Below are positions 2,125 through 14,621 of a stretch of DNA of 15,978 nt, one piece after another (position 1 is the stretch's first letter; every line of letters starts with the position of its first letter). The stretch comes from an uncultured archaeon (lineage in GTDB: Archaea > Asgardarchaeota > Jordiarchaeia > Jordiarchaeales > Jordiarchaeaceae). The translations under genes were made by a program, and so were the position numbers. The stretch covers positions 1 to 15,978 of the forward strand of contig CAZECW010000131.1 in assembly GCA_964510585.1 (NCBI GenBank). Reading direction: 5' to 3'. The notes under the pieces were generated by a model. That model did not search any database. It saw nothing but the letters and a program-made list of their open reading frames with translations, and had not been told where the DNA came from.

Positions 2125-2589
2125 TTAATATCTTCTTCCTCTACTTCTATCACTTCTGTATGGTCTGGATCCCCCATATCTGGATCCTGAATCGCCATAG
2201 CTTGGTCTGTATCGTCTTTCCTGCTCGTAAACCTTGTCCGAGAGGTTGTTTTCGTTGTTTACTTCCATTTCTTCGCCGTCTTCGACTTCCTCGAGGCTTC
2301 CGTATTTGCCAATGTTGAGCCTTAAGGAATTCTTGAATACTGATGTGTAGCCGTTGTTAAGTTTGTAGATGTGGTTTTCTTTCACCTTGTCTATGTCATC
2401 ATTCCAGAGGGACAATAAAATGGTTCCCGAACTGTCGCCCACTAGGGCTTCGGTGACCCTCAAGCTCTCACCGGTTCTTCTTGACACAACTTCTCTTTCT
2501 TCGTTTAGTGATTTTACTTTGAATTTTACATTTATGCTCTTAAGACCTGGTCTTAAGTTCTCAATAATTAAATCTTGTGGTTCAATCAT
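2125..2589 (-). CDS. ssb: Single-stranded DNA-binding protein, single OB fold (crenarchaeal SSB-like) with R/G/Y/S-rich C-terminal tail, 154 aa
   Basis: I-x-x-LRPG-x-x-x-INV-x-FKV, VGDSSGTILLSLWN and GYTSVFKNSLRLNIGKYG are OB-fold features of Sulfolobus-type SSB. Low-complexity tail RRYRPSYGDSGSRYGGSRPYRSDRSRGRRY. Confidence 0.9.
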   Translation of the reverse strand: MIEPQDLIIENLRPGLKSINVKFKVKSLNEEREVVSRRTGESLRVTEALVGDSSGTILLSLWNDDIDKVKENHIYKLNNGYTSVFKNSLRLNIGKYGSLEEVEDGEEMEVNNENNLSDKVYEQERRYRPSYGDSGSRYGGSRPYRSDRSRGRRY

Positions 2590-3444: not shown

Positions 3445-3480
3445 CTTCACAATTTGGCTTTTACTCTTCCCTGCTTTAGA

Positions 3481-3487
3481 TTTTTTT
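3481..3487 (+). terminator. Candidate oligo(T) terminator
   Basis: T7 run 36 nt after the RING-gene stop. Confidence 0.35.
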
Positions 3488-3666
3488 AAGCTCATCCTCC
3501 ATTGTGATTCTTCGCTAGAGCTAAAATTTATTGAAAAATCAGGTTTGCCTCGTGCATAGGGGCAACTATATTTTTAGGGCTCGTCCCTAATTAAGGTAGA
3601 TTAGAAACTTTTTTAACCAAGAATAAATAGAAATTTTAATAATTTATACCTCGGAGTGGAGATGAA

Positions 3667-4917
3667 TTGAGTTTTGCTGAGACACTGAAATGTTTGGAGT
3701 GCGGTAAGGAATATCCCTTCGATGAAATAATTTACAATTGTGGAAGCTGCGGAAGCAAGGGTCTCTTCCATGGCACTGTTGATGTGATCTACAATTTAGA
3801 GGGAGCAAAAGAGAAAATAGATAGGAAAGTTCTTGAATCCCGCCACCCATCAGTCTGGAAGTACTTTGAGCTTCTACCAATACTCGATGATTCAAACATA
3901 GTTTCCCTCGGCGAAGGTGGAACCCCACTAGTCAAATGCAACGGATACGCTAGGGAAACAAAATCGAAAAGCCTGTATATGAAGAATGAATTCGTTAACC
4001 CCACATTGAGCTTCAAAGACAGAGTTTTTACAGTGAATATTTCCAAGGCTGTAGAGTATGGTGTGAATACCATTGTTATGGCTTCCTCTGGAAACGCAGC
4101 TACGGCAGCCTCAGCCTACTGCGCTAAAGCCGGACTAAACTGCTACATCTTCATACCAGGTGAAGCCTCACTGCCAAAAATCGCAAACATAATCATGAAT
4201 GGGGCGAAAACAATTAAGATTAAGGGAACAGTCGTCAATGCCGCAGTTCTGGCTGTGGAGGCAAGCTGGAAGTGGGGCTGGTACCAGTTAACCACAGCAA
4301 AAGCCCTCAGCCCCTATCAGGGAGAGGGATCAAAAACCATAGCCTACGAAATATGTGAACAGCTAGGCTGGAATGCTCCAGACTGGGTTTTTGTACCAAT
4401 GGGTGGAGGGGACAACATTGGGGGGATATGGAAGGGATTCAAAGAATTCCACGAACTTGGATTCATAGACACCCTTCCAAGAATGGTGGGCGTACAGGCA
4501 GAAGGAGCTGCAACAATAGTAAACACCTTCAACCAGGGAAAAGACTACACAGAAGCACCCATGGAGGAAGCAAAAACAATAGCTGAAGGAATACGCGCCG
4601 GCGTCTGCCCCGGACCATGGCCCCTCATGACTCTCAGAGAGTCTAAGGGAATAGGTGTAGCTGTATCCGACAAGGAGATTTTGGAAGCAGAAAAAATGCT
4701 GGCAAAAACAGAGGGAATATTCTGCGAACCATCCTCAGCAGCGGCAGCAGCTGGCTTCAAAAAACTTAGAGAGCAAGGAAAAATTGACGGAACCGACATA
4801 GTGGTTTGTGTACTAACAGGTGCGGGATTAAAGGACATTGAAGCCGCTATGAAACTCATTGAGGAACCCCCAGAAATAGAGCCAAAAATAACGGAGCTAG
4901 AAAAACTAGTAAAGTAA
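3667..4917 (+). CDS. thrC: Threonine synthase-like PLP enzyme (fold type II) with N-terminal zinc ribbon, 416 aa; exact activity uncertain
   Basis: CxxC...CxxC N-terminus; LGEGGTPL; PLP lysine motif NPTLSFKDR (K117); SSGN; EGxKT; EPSSA; LTGAGLK. TTG start after GGAGTGGAG. Several substrate-binding positions are non-canonical (see findings). Confidence 0.8.
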   Translation: MSFAETLKCLECGKEYPFDEIIYNCGSCGSKGLFHGTVDVIYNLEGAKEKIDRKVLESRHPSVWKYFELLPILDDSNIVSLGEGGTPLVKCNGYARETKSKSLYMKNEFVNPTLSFKDRVFTVNISKAVEYGVNTIVMASSGNAATAASAYCAKAGLNCYIFIPGEASLPKIANIIMNGAKTIKIKGTVVNAAVLAVEASWKWGWYQLTTAKALSPYQGEGSKTIAYEICEQLGWNAPDWVFVPMGGGDNIGGIWKGFKEFHELGFIDTLPRMVGVQAEGAATIVNTFNQGKDYTEAPMEEAKTIAEGIRAGVCPGPWPLMTLRESKGIGVAVSDKEILEAEKMLAKTEGIFCEPSSAAAAAGFKKLREQGKIDGTDIVVCVLTGAGLKDIEAAMKLIEEPPEIEPKITELEKLVK

Positions 4918-4951
4918 CAAGCTCTCTATGCTCCATCATTATCGATCCTAA

Positions 4952-4958
4952 TTTTTTT
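4952..4958 (+). terminator. Candidate oligo(T) terminator
   Basis: T7 run 34 nt after the thrC-like stop. Confidence 0.35.
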
Positions 4959-5592
4959 CTACCGATTCCCCTAAATTCCTGCATCCTAAACTTAAGCTAA
5001 ACAGTTCTGTGAATCGAAACTGGATTCCGTACTAAGAAAAAGAAAACACATAGAAAAAAGAATGAAAAGAGGGGGCAGCTATTTTTCGGATTGCTTATAA
5101 CAAGCCGTTAATACTCCCTACATACAACAAGTGTGCAGGAGAATCAGTTTCGGATGTATTTTTCTCTTGTTTAGTTTGTATATTCTCCGCAGCGTTTATA
5201 GTGTGTTATCTTTTCTTAGACGTTTTAATTGGAGCGGATCTCCCTGGGCTTTTCTTGTGGCAGATCACTAATCTTCCAAGGAGTATCTCCCAGTAGACTA
5301 GTGTTTTTTCCCCAATCGTGATTGTACCCCAGCCTGATTCCACTCAGTCGACTTCTGAGGTAGACATCCCTAAGCAGGTCTCAATAACCTCCATACTACA
5401 AACTTAAAGCTAAGTCTGTAAATGCCCCTCCTTGCCCTCAATAACACGTGAATCTTTTAACAGGCATACTTGAACTATTAGCCACCCTGGGAAATAAAAC
5501 TTATTCGATTCACAAAAAGAGTTAATGATTTCAAGTCTTCTATTTGGGAAGTGGTCTGCAAGGTATGTTGAAACTAAAATAAAAAAGGGGAG

Positions 5593-7038
5593 TTATTTCT
5601 CCCTTGCTGCTTTTCCGGTTTCCCTTACGAACGCTGCCAAGATAGGTATTATTGCCATGAGGATTGTGAAGAACACAGCAGCCCCAAAGAATGTTCCAGG
5701 CATCTGAATTAATGGCGGTGGAGCAATGAGATAGTAATAAACAGGGTTCATGAGCACACTTGACCAGTAATTTGCAAGGATGACATGATTGTAGAACAAC
5801 TCAGCTATGATGTAGGAAAAAGACGATTCCTGGAAGAGGCCCCCCACAAGTGGAAGCACAGCGCTTCCGAGGTGCCCCATAGTGAGCATTATGCCTAGAC
5901 CCAAACCTGCAAGCATAGGTCCCACTGCTCTTAGTTCAACCATCGTTTCGAATAGGACAGGAGCGAGTGCAAGTAGGAAGAAGCCAAAAATCGCAGCCGA
6001 GATGAGGAGAACGTTGCCAGATTGGGTTCCCAAAAGGTAAACCATGGGTATACAGATGATTGGCAGCGTCAGAAGGAAAGGTTTCCTCCTCTGAACTCTG
6101 TCAGAAAACCACGGAATTAAAAGCATACCGACACTTCCGGTGAGGGTGATTACACCCGAGACGAGACCGCCAGTCGTTTGTTCTAAGCGGATGAAAATGA
6201 AGGAGTACTGTGGCGCATACATTGAGATGTAAAGCTCAATCAGCTTCTGAATTAGGGGTGCATTTGACCATGCCATTCGCTCAATGAAGTCGGTTAGGAA
6301 AATGTAGATTCCAAAACCTAAGAAGAAAGCAGATGCGAGCAGCCAGTAGTCTCTAGAACCAGCTATCCTTGAAAGCCCTTCCCTTAGAGGAACAGGTTTC
6401 GTTTCCTCCCAAGGCTCCGGAGGCAGTTCAGGTGCTTCACGAGCTATCACGAAGAATATTACGGTTATTATCGCTGCGACAAAGCCATAGACTAGGAGTG
6501 CATTTTGAAGACTCGTTCGTGGAGCATACTCACCAAACATAGATATGAGCAAGGGTGTGACTATTAGACCCACAACCATTCCCAGATTGTTGGCGAACAT
6601 TCCCAGACCTTGAGCCAGTGCCCTTTCACCTGAGGGGAACCAGTTCACGGCTGCTTTGGTTAGGCTAACAAAGATGAAGGCCATCGCCACTCCTTGGAGG
6701 AACTGGAAGAATAGAAGCCAGTTTATGTCGGGTGAGAAAACCCTGACTATACCCACAGTGGTAGTTAGTATAGCTCCGGCTCCGGTGCAGAAAACCCATC
6801 CTCTCTTGTCCACCAAAACCCCTATGGGAATACTGACGATTATCTCAGCGATGAGAGAAATTATAACTAGAAGTGTTATCGCCGTCTCACTTACCCCGGT
6901 GAGGAAGAATGCCTGTCTTACAGTTGAGGATATGGGTGCGAATGCGAGCCAGATAGGCTGAGCTATAAACCACACCAAGCAGTAGGCAAGAATTGCAACC
7001 CAGCGGTACCTATAAACCTGATACTTAGCAGAAGACAT
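5593..7038 (-). CDS. Major facilitator superfamily transporter, 481 aa (SLC49/FLVCR-like N-terminal motifs)
   Basis: About 12 hydrophobic segments; motif A-like GVLVDKRG and its C-half copy WFSDRVQRRK; WFPSGERA; N-terminal YxVYRYRW. Substrate unknown. Confidence 0.92.
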   Translation of the reverse strand: MSSAKYQVYRYRWVAILAYCLVWFIAQPIWLAFAPISSTVRQAFFLTGVSETAITLLVIISLIAEIIVSIPIGVLVDKRGWVFCTGAGAILTTTVGIVRVFSPDINWLLFFQFLQGVAMAFIFVSLTKAAVNWFPSGERALAQGLGMFANNLGMVVGLIVTPLLISMFGEYAPRTSLQNALLVYGFVAAIITVIFFVIAREAPELPPEPWEETKPVPLREGLSRIAGSRDYWLLASAFFLGFGIYIFLTDFIERMAWSNAPLIQKLIELYISMYAPQYSFIFIRLEQTTGGLVSGVITLTGSVGMLLIPWFSDRVQRRKPFLLTLPIICIPMVYLLGTQSGNVLLISAAIFGFFLLALAPVLFETMVELRAVGPMLAGLGLGIMLTMGHLGSAVLPLVGGLFQESSFSYIIAELFYNHVILANYWSSVLMNPVYYYLIAPPPLIQMPGTFFGAAVFFTILMAIIPILAAFVRETGKAAREK

Positions 7039-7090
7039 TCCACATCATCCACAGGACTAATTTTTAGGAGTGTCATTTGATATCACTTTT

Positions 7091-7098
7091 TATATAAA
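7091..7098 (-). promoter_or_regulatory. Putative TATA box of the MFS gene
   Basis: TTTATATA on the minus strand, within palindromic TTTATATAAA (7089-7098), 53 nt upstream of the ATG. Confidence 0.5.
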
Positions 7099-7122
7099 GA
7101 TTTCTTTTCAATCGCTGTGTTG

Positions 7123-7180
7123 TGCAATTTTACTTTTCGGTTTCGTTTTTGGTGAAATTTTTGCAATTTGAAAAAATTCA
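7123..7180. repeat. Second copy of the AT-rich motif cluster (see 1868-1916)
   Basis: Contains 13-bp imperfect palindrome TGAAATTTTTGCA (7153-7165) and TGAAAAAATTCA (7169-7180); matches 1868-1916 in reverse orientation. Confidence 0.5.
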
Positions 7181-7277
7181 AAAAAGGTAATTAAATTTTG
7201 AGAAAAGTTCTGAAAAAGATTATTTTGAGACTAAAATTCGTCAGGGATATTCTTTCTGAATGAATGGTTTCTAAAAT

Positions 7278-8237
7278 TTATATCCGCAGTCTAGGAAAAA
7301 GTCTGAGTGCATTCCCCTGTTCTATTCGAGTACGCTCCTCGGTGTCAAAACCGTCGTAGCTGTCGAGTTGCTTAATCTGTTCTGCTGTGAGGTTTTCAGG
7401 TGCAAAAGGGTAATCGCTTCCAAAGAGAATTTGGGAAGACTCCACTAATTCTTGGAGGGAACGTAAGGCGTAGGGGGTAGTTGAAAGTGCAGTGTCATAG
7501 TATATTTTTTTGAGGTAACTTATAAATCCTTGAGGAGCATTTTTCGCCGCATCGGTTATCATAAATAGGCCCAGAGAAATTCGCCAAGCAAGGAAGGGGA
7601 TGGTTCCACCTGCATGCGAAAAGATAAATTGGACATGTGGATTGCGTTCAATGGTGCCGCTATAAATAAGATTCGTTATTGTGCGGGTGGTGTCAAAAGT
7701 ATACTCATACAAAGAGTAGGGAACATCGAGACCAATATGTTTAACTCCAGCGGGATCTGTGGGGTGGACAAAGACAACTGCTTTTCTGCGATTAAGTTCC
7801 CTAAAAACCTCATCAAAAAGGGGGTCGCCCAAATATCGGCCGCCAAAATTGGTCATCAATACCACACCATCAAGGCCCAGCGAGTCCATAGCATAATCTA
7901 TTTCCTCTAGGGCAGCGTCCACATCTGGCAGAGGCAAAGTGGCAAAAGCCCCAAACCGCTGAGGGTTACCATGCACCAGATTTGCGGAGAACTCATTGCA
8001 TATCCTTGCCAATTCTTGGGCAAAGGCGGAATCGCCGAAATAAACGCCCGGCGAAGAAATAGAGGTAATCGCTGCCATTATTCCATTACGATCCATCACA
8101 TCAAGCATCATATTCTCAGACCATTGAGGAAAAGTCACTCCAGAAGTTTTGGTGATGCCCAGGCTATTTAGAGCTTTAACATATTCACGGGGAACAATAT
8201 GGTGGTGTACATCAACACGATGAGGTTCAGCAAACAT
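7278..8237 (-). CDS. Amidohydrolase-2 family protein (6-methylsalicylate decarboxylase / ACMSD-like metal-dependent decarboxylase or hydrolase)
   Basis: DVHHH, VFVHP, HAGG, YYDTA and FGSDYPF metal-site motifs. The ORF track starts at GTG 8285. I prefer ATG 8237 (MFAEPHRVDVHHH, 319 aa) because it gives a typical N-terminus and a TATTTAAAA box lies at 8288-8296 on the minus strand. Confidence 0.9.
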   Translation of the reverse strand: MFAEPHRVDVHHHIVPREYVKALNSLGITKTSGVTFPQWSENMMLDVMDRNGIMAAITSISSPGVYFGDSAFAQELARICNEFSANLVHGNPQRFGAFATLPLPDVDAALEEIDYAMDSLGLDGVVLMTNFGGRYLGDPLFDEVFRELNRRKAVVFVHPTDPAGVKHIGLDVPYSLYEYTFDTTRTITNLIYSGTIERNPHVQFIFSHAGGTIPFLAWRISLGLFMITDAAKNAPQGFISYLKKIYYDTALSTTPYALRSLQELVESSQILFGSDYPFAPENLTAEQIKQLDSYDGFDTEERTRIEQGNALRLFPRLRI

Positions 8238-8680
8238 TACAACACTCTCTGAGATGGATTTTTTCTCAACTATAAGGCGGAACACCTTTTTAAATAGTTT
8301 TCACCCCCAAAGTAATCGATGCCAATCGGTTAAATGAACCCATAAAGAATGTGGTAGGGTAGGAACCTACCAGTATTTGATTGTTTGGAGGTTCTCGGTA
8401 ATCATCCTCATTGTTTGCCAGGCTGGGAAGGAAATATTGTGTGAGCAACTCTATGTTTGAGGGGGGTGTTCATGTTTCCGCTAAAAGGGTTTAGGGCAGA
8501 TTTTTTATGTACTGCTGGAATGAGTTGGTTTAGATCTGCTCTTCTCCAAGGTGAGCTATTTTTCCATTAAACATCTCCCGAAATATTTTTTCTGGTCTGG
8601 GAAGGTAGGGCACCATTGCTTAAAGGGGGCGCTTAAATGTTATTCTTTTTCTACGGAACTGAAGTTTTGGGACTAAAAGG

Positions 8681-8686
8681 TTATAA
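8681..8686 (+). promoter_or_regulatory. Putative TATA box of the acx operon
   Basis: AAAAGG-TTATAA, the same purine-run-plus-TATA pattern as upstream of ssb copy 1. Confidence 0.45.
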
Positions 8687-8750
8687 GGGAGATTCTCCAA
8701 ATACTTAGAACTAAAATTATGTTATGAATGGGAGTTTGGAGAGGAAAAAC

Positions 8751-10898
8751 TTGTCTGAATCTAAAGCAGTTAAAAAATATTCTGTGAAAGCCATAGCTTT
8801 GGATACTGGTGGAACAATGTCAGACACATTCATAATCGATGAAAAGGGAAGGTTCGCTGTGGGAAAAGCTTTGACCACCCCCCAAGAGGAATCAGTGGGA
8901 ATCCTAAACTCCATAGCCGACGCCCTAAGCTATTGGAACACTAAACTAGAGGAAGGAGCGGCAACCGTGGAGGCTCTAGTTTACTCCGGCACCCTAATGA
9001 CAAACAGATTATTGGAGAGAAAAGGCAACAGCAACATCGGAGTCATAGTGAATGCGGGATTCGAAGATCTCCACAGGCTGGGAAGAGCCCTACAGTGCTG
9101 GATATGGCTACCCTACTCGGGGCGTCTACACGCCAGAGAACATGAACACCCCAAACCGCTCATCCCAAGAAAAAACATTAAGGGTGTTCGGGGAAGAATC
9201 AATTTCTGGGGAGAACAGTTGATTCCGCTCTACGAAAACGATGTGAGAAAAGCCGTGGAAGAACTTCTCGACATGGGAGTCGATAGCATCTGTGTTTGTC
9301 TCCTCTGCTCCTACATGAACCCCATGCACGAGAGACGGGTGAGAGAGATTGCAGAAGAGGTTATGGCAAAGAAAGGCAAAAAGGTTCCAGTAGTTTTGTC
9401 CTGTGAACACAACCCAGTTAGAGGTGAAACTCCAAGGCTCAACGCTCTAATAATTGAGCAGTACGCAGCTGAACCCTCAAGACAACAGTTGATTAAACTA
9501 TCAGAAACCTTCAAGAAGAAAGGAGTACGCGCGCCCCTAAGGATACTGACGTCTTATGGTGGAACAATTTCTCCGCAGCACAGGCAGTTGATAACCATTC
9601 TTATGTCTGGCCCCATAGGTGGAGTTATAGGCAGCAAGTTCATAGCGGAAAAGTATGGAATAAAGAACTTAGTATCGTCAGATGTTGGGGGAACAAGCTT
9701 TGACGTGGCCCTAATGATGGAGAAATATGTTCCAACCAAGTGGGAGAGCTCCATCGGAAGATATATACTTAACATACCAACACTGGCCCTGGACTCTATA
9801 GGCGCGGGAACCGGGATGTACGTTAGATACAACAAGATTACCGAGAACCTAGAGTTTGGACCAGAAAGCGCGGGATACCGCATAGGAGTATGCAACGAAG
9901 AGTCAGGAGTAACAACGGTAACCATGACCGACTGCAGCTTGATTCTGGGATACCTCAACCCCAAATATTTCCTTGGAGGAAAGGTTCCACTAAACAAGGA
10001 ACGTGCACTTAAAGCCGTAGAGGAACAGTTAGCGGAACCCATGAAAACTGATCCCTACAGCACCGCTAGGGGAGCGTTGGATCTTATAGAGATAAGTATG
10101 AAGAACCACCTCAACGGTATGATAGAAGGATTAGGATTCAGACCCGAAAACTATGCTCTAATATCGTTCGGCGGAGGAGGACCACTACACGTGGCTGGAT
10201 ACTCTAGGGATATGAAATTCCAAGACATACTGATACCGGAGTGGGCTCCTGCCTTCTCAGCCTTTGGATGTGCCTGCGCCGACCACTCCTACAGACACGA
10301 GAAAACAGCGGATCTCATAATAACTCCTAACGGAGCCATGAACCCCATAGTGGCTATGATGCTGAATGCCACCTGGGCTGAACTCAAGCAAAATATAGTT
10401 GAAGAAGTTAAGAGGGAGGGAAGAGACCCCAGCGAACTGGAGTTCAGACCATCAGTTAGGTTGCAGTATCTGGGAATGTTGGACGACTTGGAAGTGAAGT
10501 CACCCTCGGATAACCTGCAGCCCGACGATGTATGGGAGATTGCCAGAAGATACGATGAACTATTTGAGGAAATTTTCTTGAGAGGCACAAAAAGCCCAGA
10601 GCTGGGATACCACGTTACCAAAGCTATAGCCACTGGAGTGGTTCCGGTACCTAAACCTGAACTTCCAACTTATGAGTTAAGCGGAAAGGAGCCGGAGGAG
10701 AAGGCTTCCAAAGGGTACAGAGAAATATTCTGGGGAGCCGGCTGGCATGAAGCTTCAATCTGGGAAATGGAGCTACTCCAATCTGGAAATGTGGTGGATG
10801 GCCCGGCAGTGATTGAAGCTCCGGCAACAACTCTGCTAGTTCCACCAGGTTACCGTGTGACACTGGATGAACATAGAATTTTCCACATGGAGGTATAA
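8751..10898 (+). CDS. acxA: Acetone carboxylase beta subunit (hydantoinase A / oxoprolinase ATP-binding family)
   Basis: ASKHA-type DTGGTMSD and DVGGTSFD, SGPIGGV, FGGGGPLH, and C-terminal GPAVIEAPATT. First of three tightly linked genes. The track starts at ATG 8724; in-frame TTG 8751 has SD GGAGAGG and the same context as the esterase start (715 aa). Confidence 0.88.
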   Translation: MSESKAVKKYSVKAIALDTGGTMSDTFIIDEKGRFAVGKALTTPQEESVGILNSIADALSYWNTKLEEGAATVEALVYSGTLMTNRLLERKGNSNIGVIVNAGFEDLHRLGRALQCWIWLPYSGRLHAREHEHPKPLIPRKNIKGVRGRINFWGEQLIPLYENDVRKAVEELLDMGVDSICVCLLCSYMNPMHERRVREIAEEVMAKKGKKVPVVLSCEHNPVRGETPRLNALIIEQYAAEPSRQQLIKLSETFKKKGVRAPLRILTSYGGTISPQHRQLITILMSGPIGGVIGSKFIAEKYGIKNLVSSDVGGTSFDVALMMEKYVPTKWESSIGRYILNIPTLALDSIGAGTGMYVRYNKITENLEFGPESAGYRIGVCNEESGVTTVTMTDCSLILGYLNPKYFLGGKVPLNKERALKAVEEQLAEPMKTDPYSTARGALDLIEISMKNHLNGMIEGLGFRPENYALISFGGGGPLHVAGYSRDMKFQDILIPEWAPAFSAFGCACADHSYRHEKTADLIITPNGAMNPIVAMMLNATWAELKQNIVEEVKREGRDPSELEFRPSVRLQYLGMLDDLEVKSPSDNLQPDDVWEIARRYDELFEEIFLRGTKSPELGYHVTKAIATGVVPVPKPELPTYELSGKEPEEKASKGYREIFWGAGWHEASIWEMELLQSGNVVDGPAVIEAPATTLLVPPGYRVTLDEHRIFHMEV

Positions 10899-10903
10899 TT
10901 AAT

Positions 10904-13120
10904 ATGTCGAGAAAGTATATTGGATGGGATAAGAAAAGCTTGAAGGAGATGCTTGAGGAGAGCGAGAGGATTTTTAAAGAGACCGGATACTACTGTGGAA
11001 TAGATAAGCTCAGACTTAAAGAAGAAGATCCATTCAGATATGAGCGTGCCTACGCCAGTCTGAGAGGAGCATTAGTCTCCGCCAGAGAAACCGCGCTGCA
11101 TATTGCCGCCTCGCCCATAGTTAGGGAGATTGGTGAGCTCTGCTTCGCCCTTTACACCCCTGAGGGGGACTCCATAGTTGTTTCAACCGGTATTCTGGTT
11201 CACGTGCACACAATGAGCGAGGCCATAAAGTTTATGATTAGGGAGAACTATGAGGAGGATCCGGGAATAAATCCGGGGGACATTTTTCTCAATAACGACC
11301 CGCAGTGTGGCAATGTGCACACTACCGATGTTCAGACCCTTATCCCCATATTCTGGAAAGATGAGCTTATAGGCTGGGCTGGAGGAGTCACACACCAGGT
11401 TGACACGGGAGGAATAGTTCCGGGACACGACCTGACATCCGCAATTCAACGTTTCGACGATGGGGTGTACTATACATGCTTAAAGATTGGTTCCAACGAT
11501 AAGATATGGAAAGACCACTTTATTAACGCTCGGAGATCTGTGAGAACACCCCTCTACTGGGAGCTAGATGAAAAGTGCCGCCTTGCAGGTGACTTGATGA
11601 TTAGGGACGCAGTCTACAAGTTCATAGAGAAGGAGGGAATAGACTACTATAAACGGTTCATAAGGGAGGCCATAGAGGAAACAAGAAGAATCTTCAAAGA
11701 ACGCGTAAAGGAACGACTAATACCTGGAAGATACAGGGCGGCTTCATTCTTTGATATACCCTCCAAGGAAACAGCTTGGCAACCAAGAGCAAAGGTTGAC
11801 AAAATCTCCAATGAACCCATAGAAATCATAGTTAAAGAGGACGGAAGTCTCTCCCTAAGTTTTGATGGGGCCAGCGGACCCGGAGCTAACCCTATGAACT
11901 GTGACAAGGGTGCTATGGAGGGAGGACAATGGGTTCTCCTAACCCAAGTTCTGATTTACGGAGACAAAGTAAACGATGGAGCATACCTTGCTGTAGAAAC
12001 TGATTATCCCTTGGGAACTTGGAGCAATCCCGGGGACCCCTACCTTTCCTATCAGAGTCCATGGGGTAACCTAATTCCCGCCTACACTGGAATGATGAAG
12101 TGTCTGTCTTATGGACTGTTTTCACGCGGCTATAGAGAAGAAGTGGTTCCAGGTTACGGTTTTACTGGAGACGCCATTCAGGGTGGAGGAGTCTACTCCG
12201 CCGGTCCACTTATGGGTCAGAGGTGGGCCCTTTCAACATTCGAAATTAGCGGTCAGGGCTTAGGAGCAAGCGCAGTGAGGGACGGACTGGACTGGGGATA
12301 CGCTATGTGGAACCCCGAAGCAGACCTTGGAGATGTGGAAACCTGGGAACTATTCCAGGGCGGTATACCCTACCTTTCAAGGAGGGTGAAGCCCAACAAC
12401 GCAGGCTATGGCAAGTATCGGGGTGGAGCAAACTATGAGGGCGTAGCAATGATTGCCAACTCCAAGGACGTGGACTTCTTCGGAGCTAGGGAAGGAATGG
12501 TTTTCCATGGAAGCGGAGGCATGCATGGAGGGTATCCCGAACCAACAGCTTATCGCCTATATGCCAAAAAAACAAATATGAAGGAAATAATTGAAAACCA
12601 GAAAGACTATCCTCTTGGAGACCCTGACCCGGCTAACGGTGAGTTTGAGAGACTCTTGAAGGGAGAAATAACAAGGAAGGAATACTGCACCATTTATCCC
12701 ATAACCCTAGAGAACTATGATTTAATTCACTACGCACTAAGTGGAGGGCCCGGATACGGTGATCCCCTGGAGAGAAGGCTGGAGCTGGTGAAGCAGGACC
12801 TTGACGATGGCATCTACACCCAAGACATTGTTTACAAGGTTTATGGAGTGGTGGCAAACTATGATGAGCAGAAGGGTGAGTGGGTAGTGGACGAGAAAGC
12901 TACACAAAAGCGTAGGGAAGAGATTAGAAGGGAGAGGAAGGAAAAATCTATGCCCTTCAACGAATACTGGGAACGGGAGCGGAAGAAAATTGTTGAAGGC
13001 AAGCTCTGCGACGCGGTTAAAATCATGTATTCTGAGAGCCTCAGACTGTCTAAAAAGTGGGCCAAGGAGTTCCGAGAATTCTGGAAGCTGCCTGAAGATT
13101 TCATGGTGGAGGTGAAATAA
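10904..13120 (+). CDS. acxB: Acetone carboxylase alpha subunit (catalytic metal-binding, hydantoinase B family), 738 aa
   Basis: SPIVREIGELCF, STGILVHVHTM, NNDPQCGNVHTTD and GGVTH. E78/H139/D142/H164 have the same spacing as the Mn ligands E89/H150/D153/H175 I recall for Xanthobacter AcxB (constant offset 11). SD GGAGGT; 5 nt after the acxA stop. Confidence 0.92.
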   Translation: MSRKYIGWDKKSLKEMLEESERIFKETGYYCGIDKLRLKEEDPFRYERAYASLRGALVSARETALHIAASPIVREIGELCFALYTPEGDSIVVSTGILVHVHTMSEAIKFMIRENYEEDPGINPGDIFLNNDPQCGNVHTTDVQTLIPIFWKDELIGWAGGVTHQVDTGGIVPGHDLTSAIQRFDDGVYYTCLKIGSNDKIWKDHFINARRSVRTPLYWELDEKCRLAGDLMIRDAVYKFIEKEGIDYYKRFIREAIEETRRIFKERVKERLIPGRYRAASFFDIPSKETAWQPRAKVDKISNEPIEIIVKEDGSLSLSFDGASGPGANPMNCDKGAMEGGQWVLLTQVLIYGDKVNDGAYLAVETDYPLGTWSNPGDPYLSYQSPWGNLIPAYTGMMKCLSYGLFSRGYREEVVPGYGFTGDAIQGGGVYSAGPLMGQRWALSTFEISGQGLGASAVRDGLDWGYAMWNPEADLGDVETWELFQGGIPYLSRRVKPNNAGYGKYRGGANYEGVAMIANSKDVDFFGAREGMVFHGSGGMHGGYPEPTAYRLYAKKTNMKEIIENQKDYPLGDPDPANGEFERLLKGEITRKEYCTIYPITLENYDLIHYALSGGPGYGDPLERRLELVKQDLDDGIYTQDIVYKVYGVVANYDEQKGEWVVDEKATQKRREEIRRERKEKSMPFNEYWERERKKIVEGKLCDAVKIMYSESLRLSKKWAKEFREFWKLPEDFMVEVK

Positions 13121-13618
13121 GTGTCCAAATATGATAGGAAAACATTGGAGAGACTAATCGACGGAGAATTAACTTGGGAAGAGTTGAAACCCATAATCAG
13201 CGGGCCTAAGGATCCAGACAGATTCGACAAAGTATTAGAAATTCTACAGTCTCGTGTGCCATGGAAGGAAAAGATTCTCTTGCCCCTCCACGAGCACCTA
13301 TACGTGGTTTCAAAAGGGGGCCAGAGGATAGTTAAGTGTGACTGTGGATACGAGTTTGGAGACTATCGTGAGAACTGGAAAACCAAATGCCGAGTTAGGG
13401 TTAGAGACACCAGAGAATCCATTGAGGAAATCTACATGAAGTATATGGGAAGCAACCCCGAATGGGAGGAGCTCCGAGAGTACTACTGCCCAGGCTGCCT
13501 AACATTATTGGACGTTGAGTGTGCACCGCCAGGATACCCCACCGTGTTCAACTTTTTACCAGACATCGACACTTTCTACGAGAAATGGCTAAATAGATCA
13601 CCGCCAGACAAAAAATAG
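13121..13618 (+). CDS. acxC: Acetone carboxylase gamma subunit (zinc-binding), 165 aa
   Basis: L-I-D-G-x-L-x-W N-terminus, KDPDRF, LHEHLYVV, C73-x-C75 and C123-x2-C126, F-x-PDIDTFY. GTG start abuts the acxB TAA, with SD GGAGGTGA inside acxB. Confidence 0.92.
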   Translation: MSKYDRKTLERLIDGELTWEELKPIISGPKDPDRFDKVLEILQSRVPWKEKILLPLHEHLYVVSKGGQRIVKCDCGYEFGDYRENWKTKCRVRVRDTRESIEEIYMKYMGSNPEWEELREYYCPGCLTLLDVECAPPGYPTVFNFLPDIDTFYEKWLNRSPPDKK

Positions 13619-13668
13619 ACTCTTCTGCCAATAAAAATTTTAAAAATTCCATTCCCCCACTTTTCCCC

Positions 13669-13675
13669 TTTTTTT
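13669..13675 (+). terminator. Candidate oligo(T) terminator of the acx operon
   Basis: TTTTCCCCTTTTTTT pyrimidine run about 50 nt after the acxC stop. Confidence 0.4.
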
Positions 13676-13933
13676 GAATCTCTTGAAATGAGAAGCAGTT
13701 CTGTAAGAGGGATTTCGAGTACTGAAAATATTTTGAAATCATCATTGACGCTCGATTTTTTATTTGTTGTAATCCCTGCCTGTCTTTTCTGGTTTTTCTG
13801 GTGGGGGATGATGGTTTTTCTTCTTAGAAACGCTGGTTTAGGTTGGCAGCTAGATCCTGGAACCGTTCAGGGGGAGAGGTTCTGGGTTGTTTTGAAGATT
13901 TTTTGGAGCCTTTAACTATTTTTTGGGTTTTTG

Positions 13934-14356
13934 CTATCTTTCTTTGAATTCGTCAGGGATGAGGGTGAAGTAGCTTGGGCAGTTATTGAGACTTCTGAGA
14001 GTTTGGCCGCCAACGTATACTAGAGCTTCTACTTCGCGTCCACTATCAGTTAGCACTCTAACAACTGTTTTTTCAAAAAGTCCCGAGGAGACTCCTTCTA
14101 TCTCGTCTAATTTATTTATTGTTTCCTCCCCTACTGAGTAGTAGACTTCACCCTTCACCGAATGCCCTTGGGAAGCCTTTATGAAGGGGTAATTCTTTGA
14201 GTTACACCATAGCAACTTGTAATTTTTGAGGAGGGCTCTCTCGAACTTGAAGCCTCTTAGAATCTTGGATCTGGAGTGCACTTCGATTTCACCATTTCTC
14301 GGATTAATATACTTGCTCAGAAGTGTACCGTAAACAAAAACATTCCCGCAACTCAA
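13934..14356 (-). CDS. Gamma-glutamylcyclotransferase (AIG2/GGACT-like) family protein, 140 aa
   Basis: VFVYGTL N-terminal motif, VxGEVY, and LDEIEG (catalytic Glu position) followed by F-E-K...V...A-x-V-Y. TTG start. Confidence 0.87.
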   Translation of the reverse strand: MSCGNVFVYGTLLSKYINPRNGEIEVHSRSKILRGFKFERALLKNYKLLWCNSKNYPFIKASQGHSVKGEVYYSVGEETINKLDEIEGVSSGLFEKTVVRVLTDSGREVEALVYVGGQTLRSLNNCPSYFTLIPDEFKER

Positions 14357-14595
14357 AAATTAAAACCCCCAAAAAAATAGAACATTAACCGCAAAATAAT
14401 TTTTGCATCAGCCCATTTAAAACTTGTCGGATACCTTTTCTGGGCAACTTTTCTGGTGAAGCGTTACATCAACTTTTTGGGCAAAATTATAGCAGACATT
14501 TTTGGCGTCATTTCTTGTTTGGCTATCCTTGATTCTTGTCATGGTGTTGCTAATGTTTAAAAGGGTTTTTAGTGGTTTAATGGATTAAGGATTTG

Positions 14596-14602
14596 TATAT
14601 AT
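14596..14602 (+). promoter_or_regulatory. Putative TATA box giving a near-leaderless transcript
   Basis: TATATAT centred about 26 nt upstream of ATG 14625. Confidence 0.4.
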
Positions 14603-14621
14603 TATTTTTTTGTGGGGCTGA

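Follow-up and report, generated by a model that had tools for sequence, protein, structure and literature searches.

The window analysed here, positions 1 to 15,978 of contig CAZECW010000131.1 from an uncultured Asgard archaeon of the Jordarchaeia, carries an operon of three genes for the beta, alpha and gamma subunits of an ATP-dependent ketone carboxylase of the acetone carboxylase (Acx) type. We regard membership of this family as secure, and the catalytic apparatus is intact. The operon is an uncharacterised sister-clade member of a known enzyme kind; its family is certain, its substrate is not. Substrate, reaction direction and physiological role are inferred: with moderate confidence, we propose that the enzyme carboxylates acetone or another aliphatic methyl ketone of similarly small size, and the role is probably assimilation or salvage of the ketone, not energy-yielding growth. 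The new element is the sister clade; the gamma subunit is already named in public records. Within the searchable literature, we found no paper on Asgard archaea that discusses acetone carboxylase or this operon, and the description of the Jordarchaeia makes no mention of acetone (PMC9723677). An earlier reading of the stretch, made from its letters alone (the sequence-only reading), knew of no characterised archaeal enzyme, and our literature search found none either.

Subunit identity and catalytic sites

The beta subunit contains the Pfam domains Hydant_A_N, Hydantoinase_A and Hydant_A_C, the alpha subunit Hydantoinase_B (PF02538), and the gamma subunit Acetone_carb_G (PF08882; 141 bits, 2e-41). 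All three match solved acetone carboxylase chains, i.e., beta the chain 5m45_B over its full length (687 bits, 1e-205), alpha 5m45_A (615 bits, 1e-183) and gamma 5svb_C (165 bits, 1e-47), with E-values that rule out a chance match. Acetophenone carboxylase (Apc) follows as the next family with 366, 130 and 41 bits for beta, alpha and gamma, and the oxoprolinase/hydantoinase entry 6YRA reaches 234 bits with beta and 46 with alpha. The complete Acx-type operon proposed in the sequence-only reading is thus borne out by the bit scores. NCBIfam has no acetone carboxylase model, and this is why the large subunits appear in public records as "hydantoinase/oxoprolinase family protein". Apc (5L9W) and the Rhodococcus Acr type belong to the same superfamily and have a homologous small Zn subunit, but Apc is encoded by five genes with two HyuA-like subunits and an epsilon subunit, whereas the window has three genes, one of them HyuA-like, and no fifth gene. 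An Apc/Acr-type assignment was rejected on this gene content, on the bit scores and on the acetophenone carboxylase models of NCBIfam, for which the scores stay far under the cut-offs (1500/1500/250).

The roles of individual residues were taken from reports on the Xanthobacter enzyme (PMC5543143, PMC12250083). The alpha metal ligands E78, H139, D142 and H164 correspond to Xanthobacter E89, H150, D153 and H175, of which E89 is essential by mutagenesis (PMC12250083); they are invariant across the wider family, more distant clades included, and thus do not discriminate between substrates. The Cys4 zinc site of gamma is complete (C73, C75, C123 and C126, for C74, C76, C124 and C127 of the reference), and its residues are conserved in 47-51 of 52 homologues. 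In beta, both nucleotide motifs are present (DTGGT at residues 27-31 and DVGGT at 320-324), the adenine-stacking Phe is kept (F416 for Xanthobacter F405), the ribose-contacting S391 is conservatively replaced by T402, and D587 stands at the position of N578. The ATP-binding motifs, the four metal ligands and the four gamma cysteines that had earlier been called intact could all be aligned to Xanthobacter sites.

Compared with AcxABC of Xanthobacter autotrophicus Py2 and its relatives (5SVB, 5SVC, 5M45; EC 6.4.1.6), the window agrees in its three subunits and in their gene order, and the proteins align over their full length at ~40-50% identity, with the same metal ligands, Cys4 site, nucleotide motifs and adenine-stacking Phe. 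It has HTTD with T140/T141, HQ with Q165 and PGHD with H175/D176 where the Xanthobacter type has HPCD, HV and PGSM, and Trp408 of a proposed metal-access patch (PMC10865871) appears as Tyr394 by a hand count on the alignment. Another difference concerns the cross-subunit contact alpha-E85/beta-N578, which gates metal access in Xanthobacter (PMC5543143). In the window and in every other member of its clade (clade B, below) this pair has become alpha-R/K74 and beta-D587; Cupriavidus, Paracoccus and Natronorubrum keep E and N. The paired change to Arg/Lys and Asp fits a gating latch that may have been retained in altered form.

By analogy with the Xanthobacter enzyme, the three genes would yield an ATP-dependent member of the acetone carboxylase family with (alpha-beta-gamma)2 architecture. 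Beta would take up ATP and transfer phosphate to the enolised ketone and to bicarbonate, and the intermediates would travel by an internal channel to the Mn/Fe site of alpha formed by the four ligands. There the 3-oxoacid (acetoacetate) would arise; gamma would contribute a structural Zn. The acetoacetate-CoA ligase of the genome or one of its CoA-transferases would activate the product, and a thiolase would cleave it to acetyl-CoA.

It is highly improbable that the enzyme is instead an ATP-dependent lactam or hydantoin hydrolase resembling 5-oxoprolinase, perhaps acting on 5-oxoproline supplied by a neighbouring gene. The enzyme does lie within the hydantoinase/oxoprolinase superfamily, and a convergent GGACT/AIG2 (gamma-glutamyl cyclotransferase-like) gene (13934-14356, minus strand), conserved in loci L001 and L002, stands 316 nt downstream of the operon and would make 5-oxoproline, the substrate of oxoprolinase. 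This neighbour is, however, confined to Jordarchaeia loci, and its link to the operon is probably coincidental. The gamma subunit marks carboxylases (PMC13677872; PMC4959651), the scores with the oxoprolinase/hydantoinase entry are low, and contig C46 of the genome encodes a HyuA/HyuB pair of its own, without gamma, that resembles caprolactamase (664 bits). A HyuA/HyuB hydrolase of the 5-oxoprolinase, hydantoinase or caprolactamase kind was rejected for the window operon because gamma is present and the caprolactamase models of NCBIfam give only 330 bits (CapA) and 70 bits (CapB) against cut-offs of 1000.

Sister-clade position and the substrate

The alpha subunit was placed in a tree of 116 rows and in a tree of 34 rows with bootstraps, and both agree. 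Two clades, A and B, jointly form one clade with a support of 100/100 in the 34-row tree. Clade A (100/99) comprises Cupriavidus metallidurans, Paracoccus, Natronorubrum, a Solirubrobacterales cluster and a paralogue from the window's own genome on contig C139. Clade B (100/100) comprises a 100/100 Asgard clade with the window, haloarchaea, Hadarchaeales and a Thermoproteota metagenome-assembled genome (MAG), Dehalococcoidia and one unclassified bacterium. The solved Xanthobacter chains are absent from the trees and were judged to be near clade A by their bit scores. In the beta tree the Asgard clade reappears (support 100), but the A/B node is not resolved. The tree check proposed with the sequence-only reading came out in its favour in so far as the protein does not group with hydantoinases or oxoprolinases, but it stands outside the canonical acetone carboxylase clade, in the sister clade. 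At the polytomy of the clade-B node, the trees leave the direction of transfer between its lineages undecided. Within the phylum, the identity of 75-86% between different Asgard classes and the nesting of a Jordarchaeia pair inside the Asgard clade suggest that the operon has been transferred.

The acx loci of C. metallidurans (L060) and Paracoccus (L061), which served as stand-ins for the characterised enzymes, have the same architecture as the window at 42-43% (alpha), 40-43% (beta) and 41% (gamma) identity, but fall in clade A beside the C139 paralogue and not in clade B. Acetone carboxylases have been predicted in the marine-sediment Dehalococcoidia DEH-C11 and RBG-1351, with the function in DEH-C11 deduced from sequence only (PMC4959651). 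Homologues from Dehalococcoidia MAGs (L040-L042 and L049; DEH-C11 itself was not placed) belong to clade B with an alpha identity of 59-60% and share HT[TA]D, HQ and PGHD with the window; their hosts are bacterial, whereas the Asgard sequences form their own 100/100 clade.

The same genome (G000) contains three beta-alpha-gamma operons, i.e., that of the window, one on C139 (972-5889, minus strand, L057) and one on contig C52 (894-5836, L058), which are ~45% identical to one another. Against the Xanthobacter chain, the alpha subunits score 690 bits (C139), 615 bits (window) and 537 bits (C52). On C139, a CoA-transferase pair lies within ~20 kb of the operon, as do two BKACE genes and thiolase-fold genes. 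The contig also has a metallo-beta-lactamase gene, an MtmB-like gene and an OYE/FadH-like reductase.

Several findings weigh against acetone as the substrate and against its use for growth. The window operon is in clade B, sister to the canonical proteobacterial clade A and not inside it, and clade B has fixed changes beside the metal ligands (HTTD for HPCD, HQ/HE for HV and PGHD for PGSM). We know of no clade-B member that has been tested. The C139 paralogue is nearer to the canonical enzymes and falls in clade A, thus the window operon is not the best acetone carboxylase candidate in its own genome. Together with the BKACE, CoA-transferase and thiolase-fold genes near the C139 operon, this suggests that the paralogues divide substrates among themselves. 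No acetoacetate, alcohol dehydrogenase or regulator gene was linked to the operon in ~50 Asgard loci; the genes that recur beside it there encode peptidase M29, an aminotransferase, an ADP-forming acyl-CoA synthetase, a DRTGG protein, a cyclophilin and a GNAT protein. Acetoacetate-CoA ligase was not enriched among operon holders of the Asgard family f20 (50 of 67, against 44 of 68 non-holders; p = 0.26, ignoring relatedness), and it is missing in three of the four operon holders of the window's genus (G118, G120 and G121). The reaction costs 2-4 ATP equivalents, which is thought too high for energy-poor strict anaerobes (PMC4103992), and the Jordarchaeia are inferred to be fermentative, methylotrophic and acetogenic (PMC9723677).

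It is possible, if less probable than acetone, that the chemistry is the same and the physiological substrate another, i.e., a longer, branched or functionalised methyl ketone, with the three paralogues sharing out the substrates. Besides the sister-clade position and the paralogy, the clade-wide His-Asp of PGHD and the Thr-Thr and Gln replacements beside the ligands are in keeping with such a change, as are the missing acetoacetate-specific linkage and co-occurrence in Asgard genomes. Substrate range does vary in the family, as a Rhodococcus Apc-like enzyme accepts acetone as well as longer ketones (PMC13677872). On the other hand, the substrate-determining residues of the family are undefined and the motif changes thus cannot be read as a change of substrate, and the context of the non-Asgard clade-B loci points to acetoacetate chemistry. 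In L047, a Thermoproteota locus, the genes right after gamma comprise one for a true acetoacetate-CoA ligase (667 bits with TIGR01217, cut-off 521), acyl-CoA dehydrogenase genes and two thiolase-like genes. In locus L044 of the unclassified bacterium MAG, an ADC-family gene (PF06314, 824-1501) lies directly 5' of beta in the same orientation, and in the haloarchaeal locus L045 an ACS-type ligase follows gamma. At L044, a MerR regulator gene precedes the ADC-family gene and a TRAP solute-binding protein gene follows; the pairing of a decarboxylase-family gene with a carboxylase is odd.

We also consider, tentatively and with slightly less confidence than the change of substrate alone, that clade B is a distinct, mostly archaeal type of ATP-dependent ketone carboxylase that has spread by transfer and whose real task is not growth on acetone. 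Its marks would be the PGHD loop, HTTD/HQ beside the ligands and the Arg/Lys-Asp latch between the subunits, and its holders would be anaerobes limited in energy (one large Asgard family, the Jordarchaeia, Hadarchaeales, Thermoproteota and Dehalococcoidia), in which it would carboxylate a ketone other than acetone or recover acetone lost from the acetoacetate pool. If this is true, the threefold paralogy of the Jordarchaeia reflects a wider ketone-carboxylating metabolism tied to the BKACE/thiolase-fold island on C139. Should the substrate differ from acetone, clade B and the two paralogues are a ready set for mapping the substrate determinants in this enzyme family.

Pathway genes, distribution and physiological role

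The preferred reading, carboxylation of acetone or a similar small ketone, draws on the pathway genes of the genome. A true acetoacetate-CoA ligase (835 bits with TIGR01217, cut-off 521) is encoded on contig C193, where it divergently adjoins a CoA-transferase A/B pair (9046-12949); this looks like a locus for acetoacetate activation and is unlinked to the three carboxylase operons. The genome further has 18 CoA-transferase, 27 thiolase-like and six BKACE matches and one ADC-family gene. With the ligase, the CoA-transferases and the thiolases, the genome encodes a path that leads from acetone by way of acetoacetate and acetoacetyl-CoA to acetyl-CoA. The CoA ligase or transferase and the thiolase had been said to lie outside the window, and they are indeed absent there and present elsewhere in the genome. 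The assimilation of ketones that the sequence-only reading envisaged is upheld as far as the downstream enzymes occur in the genome, but in Asgard loci none of them is linked to the operon. The genes that flank it in the window are conserved only within the Jordarchaeia.

The ATP cost, together with the fermentative and acetogenic character of the Jordarchaeia, makes an energy-yielding catabolic role doubtful. Sulfate reducers are likewise thought to avoid acetone carboxylases because of their ATP cost (PMC4103992).

A mainly decarboxylating or cyclic enzyme, which would convert acetoacetate to acetone with phosphorylation of a nucleotide or recapture acetone lost spontaneously at hot-spring temperature, appears very improbable. 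The acetoacetate could be supplied from acetoacetyl-CoA by CoA-transferase or by BKACE reactions, and the genome is rich in such acetoacetate-forming enzymes. The reverse reaction has been proposed as one explanation of the very high acx expression in an anoxic aquifer (PMC5264521), and the hot-spring habitat and the ADC-family gene in the same gene string at L044 would also suit it. Against it, there is no known in vivo precedent, and the products AMP + 2 Pi (PMC5543143) make ATP synthesis by reversal implausible, by our own reasoning. Moreover, judged by NCBI labels and contig names alone, most holders of the Asgard-type operon appear to be sediment MAGs and not thermophiles.

An alpha match (E <= 1e-100) was found in 76 of 400 Asgard species genomes, and the operon, which public annotation in part names, is thus not rare. 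Two of the 76 (G116 and G119) have only paralogue-type copies of 45-47% identity. The large family f20 accounts for many matches (67 of its 135 genomes), and in the window's genus the window-type operon occurs in G000 and in three of the five other genomes. The gamma-subunit search returned nearly the same set of genomes, with single copies outside the Jordarchaeia order. The three-gene unit is kept wherever the contig allows, with beta in 52 and gamma in 46 of the 56 related loci.

To our knowledge, work on acetone carboxylases has been confined to bacteria, for the most part aerobes, denitrifiers and phototrophs, which are able to pay 2-4 ATP equivalents per turnover. Matches to a highly conserved version (75-86% identity) in about half of the sampled genomes of one large Asgard family, and related versions in other subsurface anaerobes, indicate that organisms short of energy spend ATP on the biotin-independent carboxylation of a small carbonyl compound. 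Provided that acetone is the substrate, metabolic models of Asgard archaea, in which we found no mention of it, gain a ketone sink and a bicarbonate-fixing entry to acetyl-CoA. Because the host is a hot-spring organism, the enzyme may be a stable subject for structural work.

The acetoacetate-CoA ligase gene of f20 shows a peculiarity of its own. In ~22 genomes it has one in-frame TAA within a 30-nt insertion (L063:1040-1110 from G173:C1 and L064:1040-1110 from G184:C49), which is absent from G188 and G000. The insertion has an ATG on both sides, the TAA comes one codon behind the first of them, and the insert forms a hairpin. The gene may be split, may contain a mini-intron or may be read through a programmed translational bypass.

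Archaeal origin, operon layout and expression signals

Proteins and contigs that are almost identical to those of the window (97-98%) belong to MAGs under the names Candidatus Freyarchaeota and Jordarchaeia; the next relatives (73-86%) are from MAGs that for the most part bear Asgard labels (Lokiarchaeia, Thor-, Hod-, Hermod- and Promethearchaeota). The assembly yielded no 16S gene, and the taxonomic placement relies on the almost identical contigs of MAGs that have names. Synteny with contigs of independent Jordarchaeia MAGs (L002, G120 and G121) extends over the whole window, and the Asgard-type operon is also found on Asgard contigs of up to 912 kb. Contamination or a chimera was rejected on these grounds; the contig is archaeal and belongs to the Jordarchaeia, and the bacterial or chimeric origin that the sequence-only reading had named as fatal to it was not found. 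The window DNA is present in hot-spring metagenomes of several studies (nine hot-spring DNA runs, and no RNA run).

The features of the operon and its surroundings are compiled in the table.

Table. Positions of the carboxylase genes, candidate expression signals and surrounding gene block in the window
Feature	Position	Strand	Remarks
Beta subunit (HyuA-like, ATP-binding, ASKHA fold)	8751..10898	+	715 aa from TTG 8751; ATG 8724 gives 724 aa
Alpha subunit (HyuB-like, metal site of C-C bond formation)	10904..13120	+	738 aa
Gamma subunit (small, Zn-binding, marks ketone carboxylases)	13121..13618	+	165 aa, GTG start
TTATAA, candidate archaeal TATA box	8681..8686	+	Invariant in three Jordarchaeia loci (window, L002, L003)
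GGAGAGG, Shine-Dalgarno-like	8738..8744	+	6 nt 5' of TTG 8751; invariant in window, L002, L003
T7 run after C-rich stretch, candidate archaeal oligo-T terminator	13669..13675	+	Function predicted
~11-kb block: ThrC-like PLP enzyme, MFS transporter, amidohydrolase_2, operon, GGACT gene	3445..14621		Accessory-looking

In the list of open reading frames of the window, the three plus-strand frames span 8724-10898, 10904-13120 and 13121-13618. The beta stop TAA (10896-10898) is separated by 5 nt from the alpha ATG at 10904, with GGAGGT at 10889-10894, and the alpha stop TAA (13118-13120) abuts the gamma GTG with a gap of 0 nt, preceded by GGAGGTG at 13108-13114. Both coordinates and motifs match the earlier description of coupled beta-alpha-gamma genes with gaps of 5 and 0 nt and a Shine-Dalgarno sequence for each. 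That description had also placed the beta start at TTG 8751, and we prefer this start to ATG 8724. The 90% identical locus of Jordarchaeum madagascariense (L003) lacks the codons around that ATG, which are deleted there, and GGAGAGG, the TTG and TTATAA do not vary among the three Jordarchaeia loci, although the rest of the spacer is poorly conserved. Homologues of beta start 10-17 residues ahead of the DTGGT motif.

The candidate TATA box, which the sequence-only reading had called archaeal-type, is preceded by a purine-rich AAAAGG and would set the transcript start near 8710; the intergenic DNA around it is only ~65% conserved across the three loci. The spacer upstream of the operon is unusually long (438 nt) and is shared with the divergent amidohydrolase_2 gene. 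Downstream of gamma, CCCC-TTTTTT(T) is conserved in the window, L001, L002 and L003. Domain scans of the window proteins revealed no regulator gene, in line with the earlier statement that there is no sigma54 activator. The window combines a putative archaeal promoter with the lack of an AcxR-type activator and of an adjacent alcohol dehydrogenase, whereas the Paracoccus locus has both genes. Rfam and tRNA scans of the window found nothing.

The block at 3445-14621 has syntenic counterparts in G120 and G121 (83-91% nucleotide identity). The operon is absent from G117, a closed genome of the same genus, in which homologues of the Zn-ribbon (38% aa identity) and NTase (63% aa identity) genes lie 1.3 kb apart, against 11.2 kb in the window. 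As it is missing between the homologues of its flanking genes, the block looks accessory within the genus.

A few further observations concern the DNA of the window. The promoter-like segment 8673-8705 (CTAAAAGG-TTATAA-GGG) has a 73%-identical 33-nt copy at 8481-8513, 192 nt upstream, and a repeat search of the 438-nt spacer found nothing beyond this duplicate. The frame at 2125-2589 (minus strand) encodes an Ssb-like OB-fold protein (PF21473). Short dispersed repeats occur at 46-144 and 1822-1962, where a ~125-nt segment (1828-1949) has dozens of matches in genomes of the same genus (G119, G120 and G121), often on both strands per site, and is a palindromic, MITE-like element.

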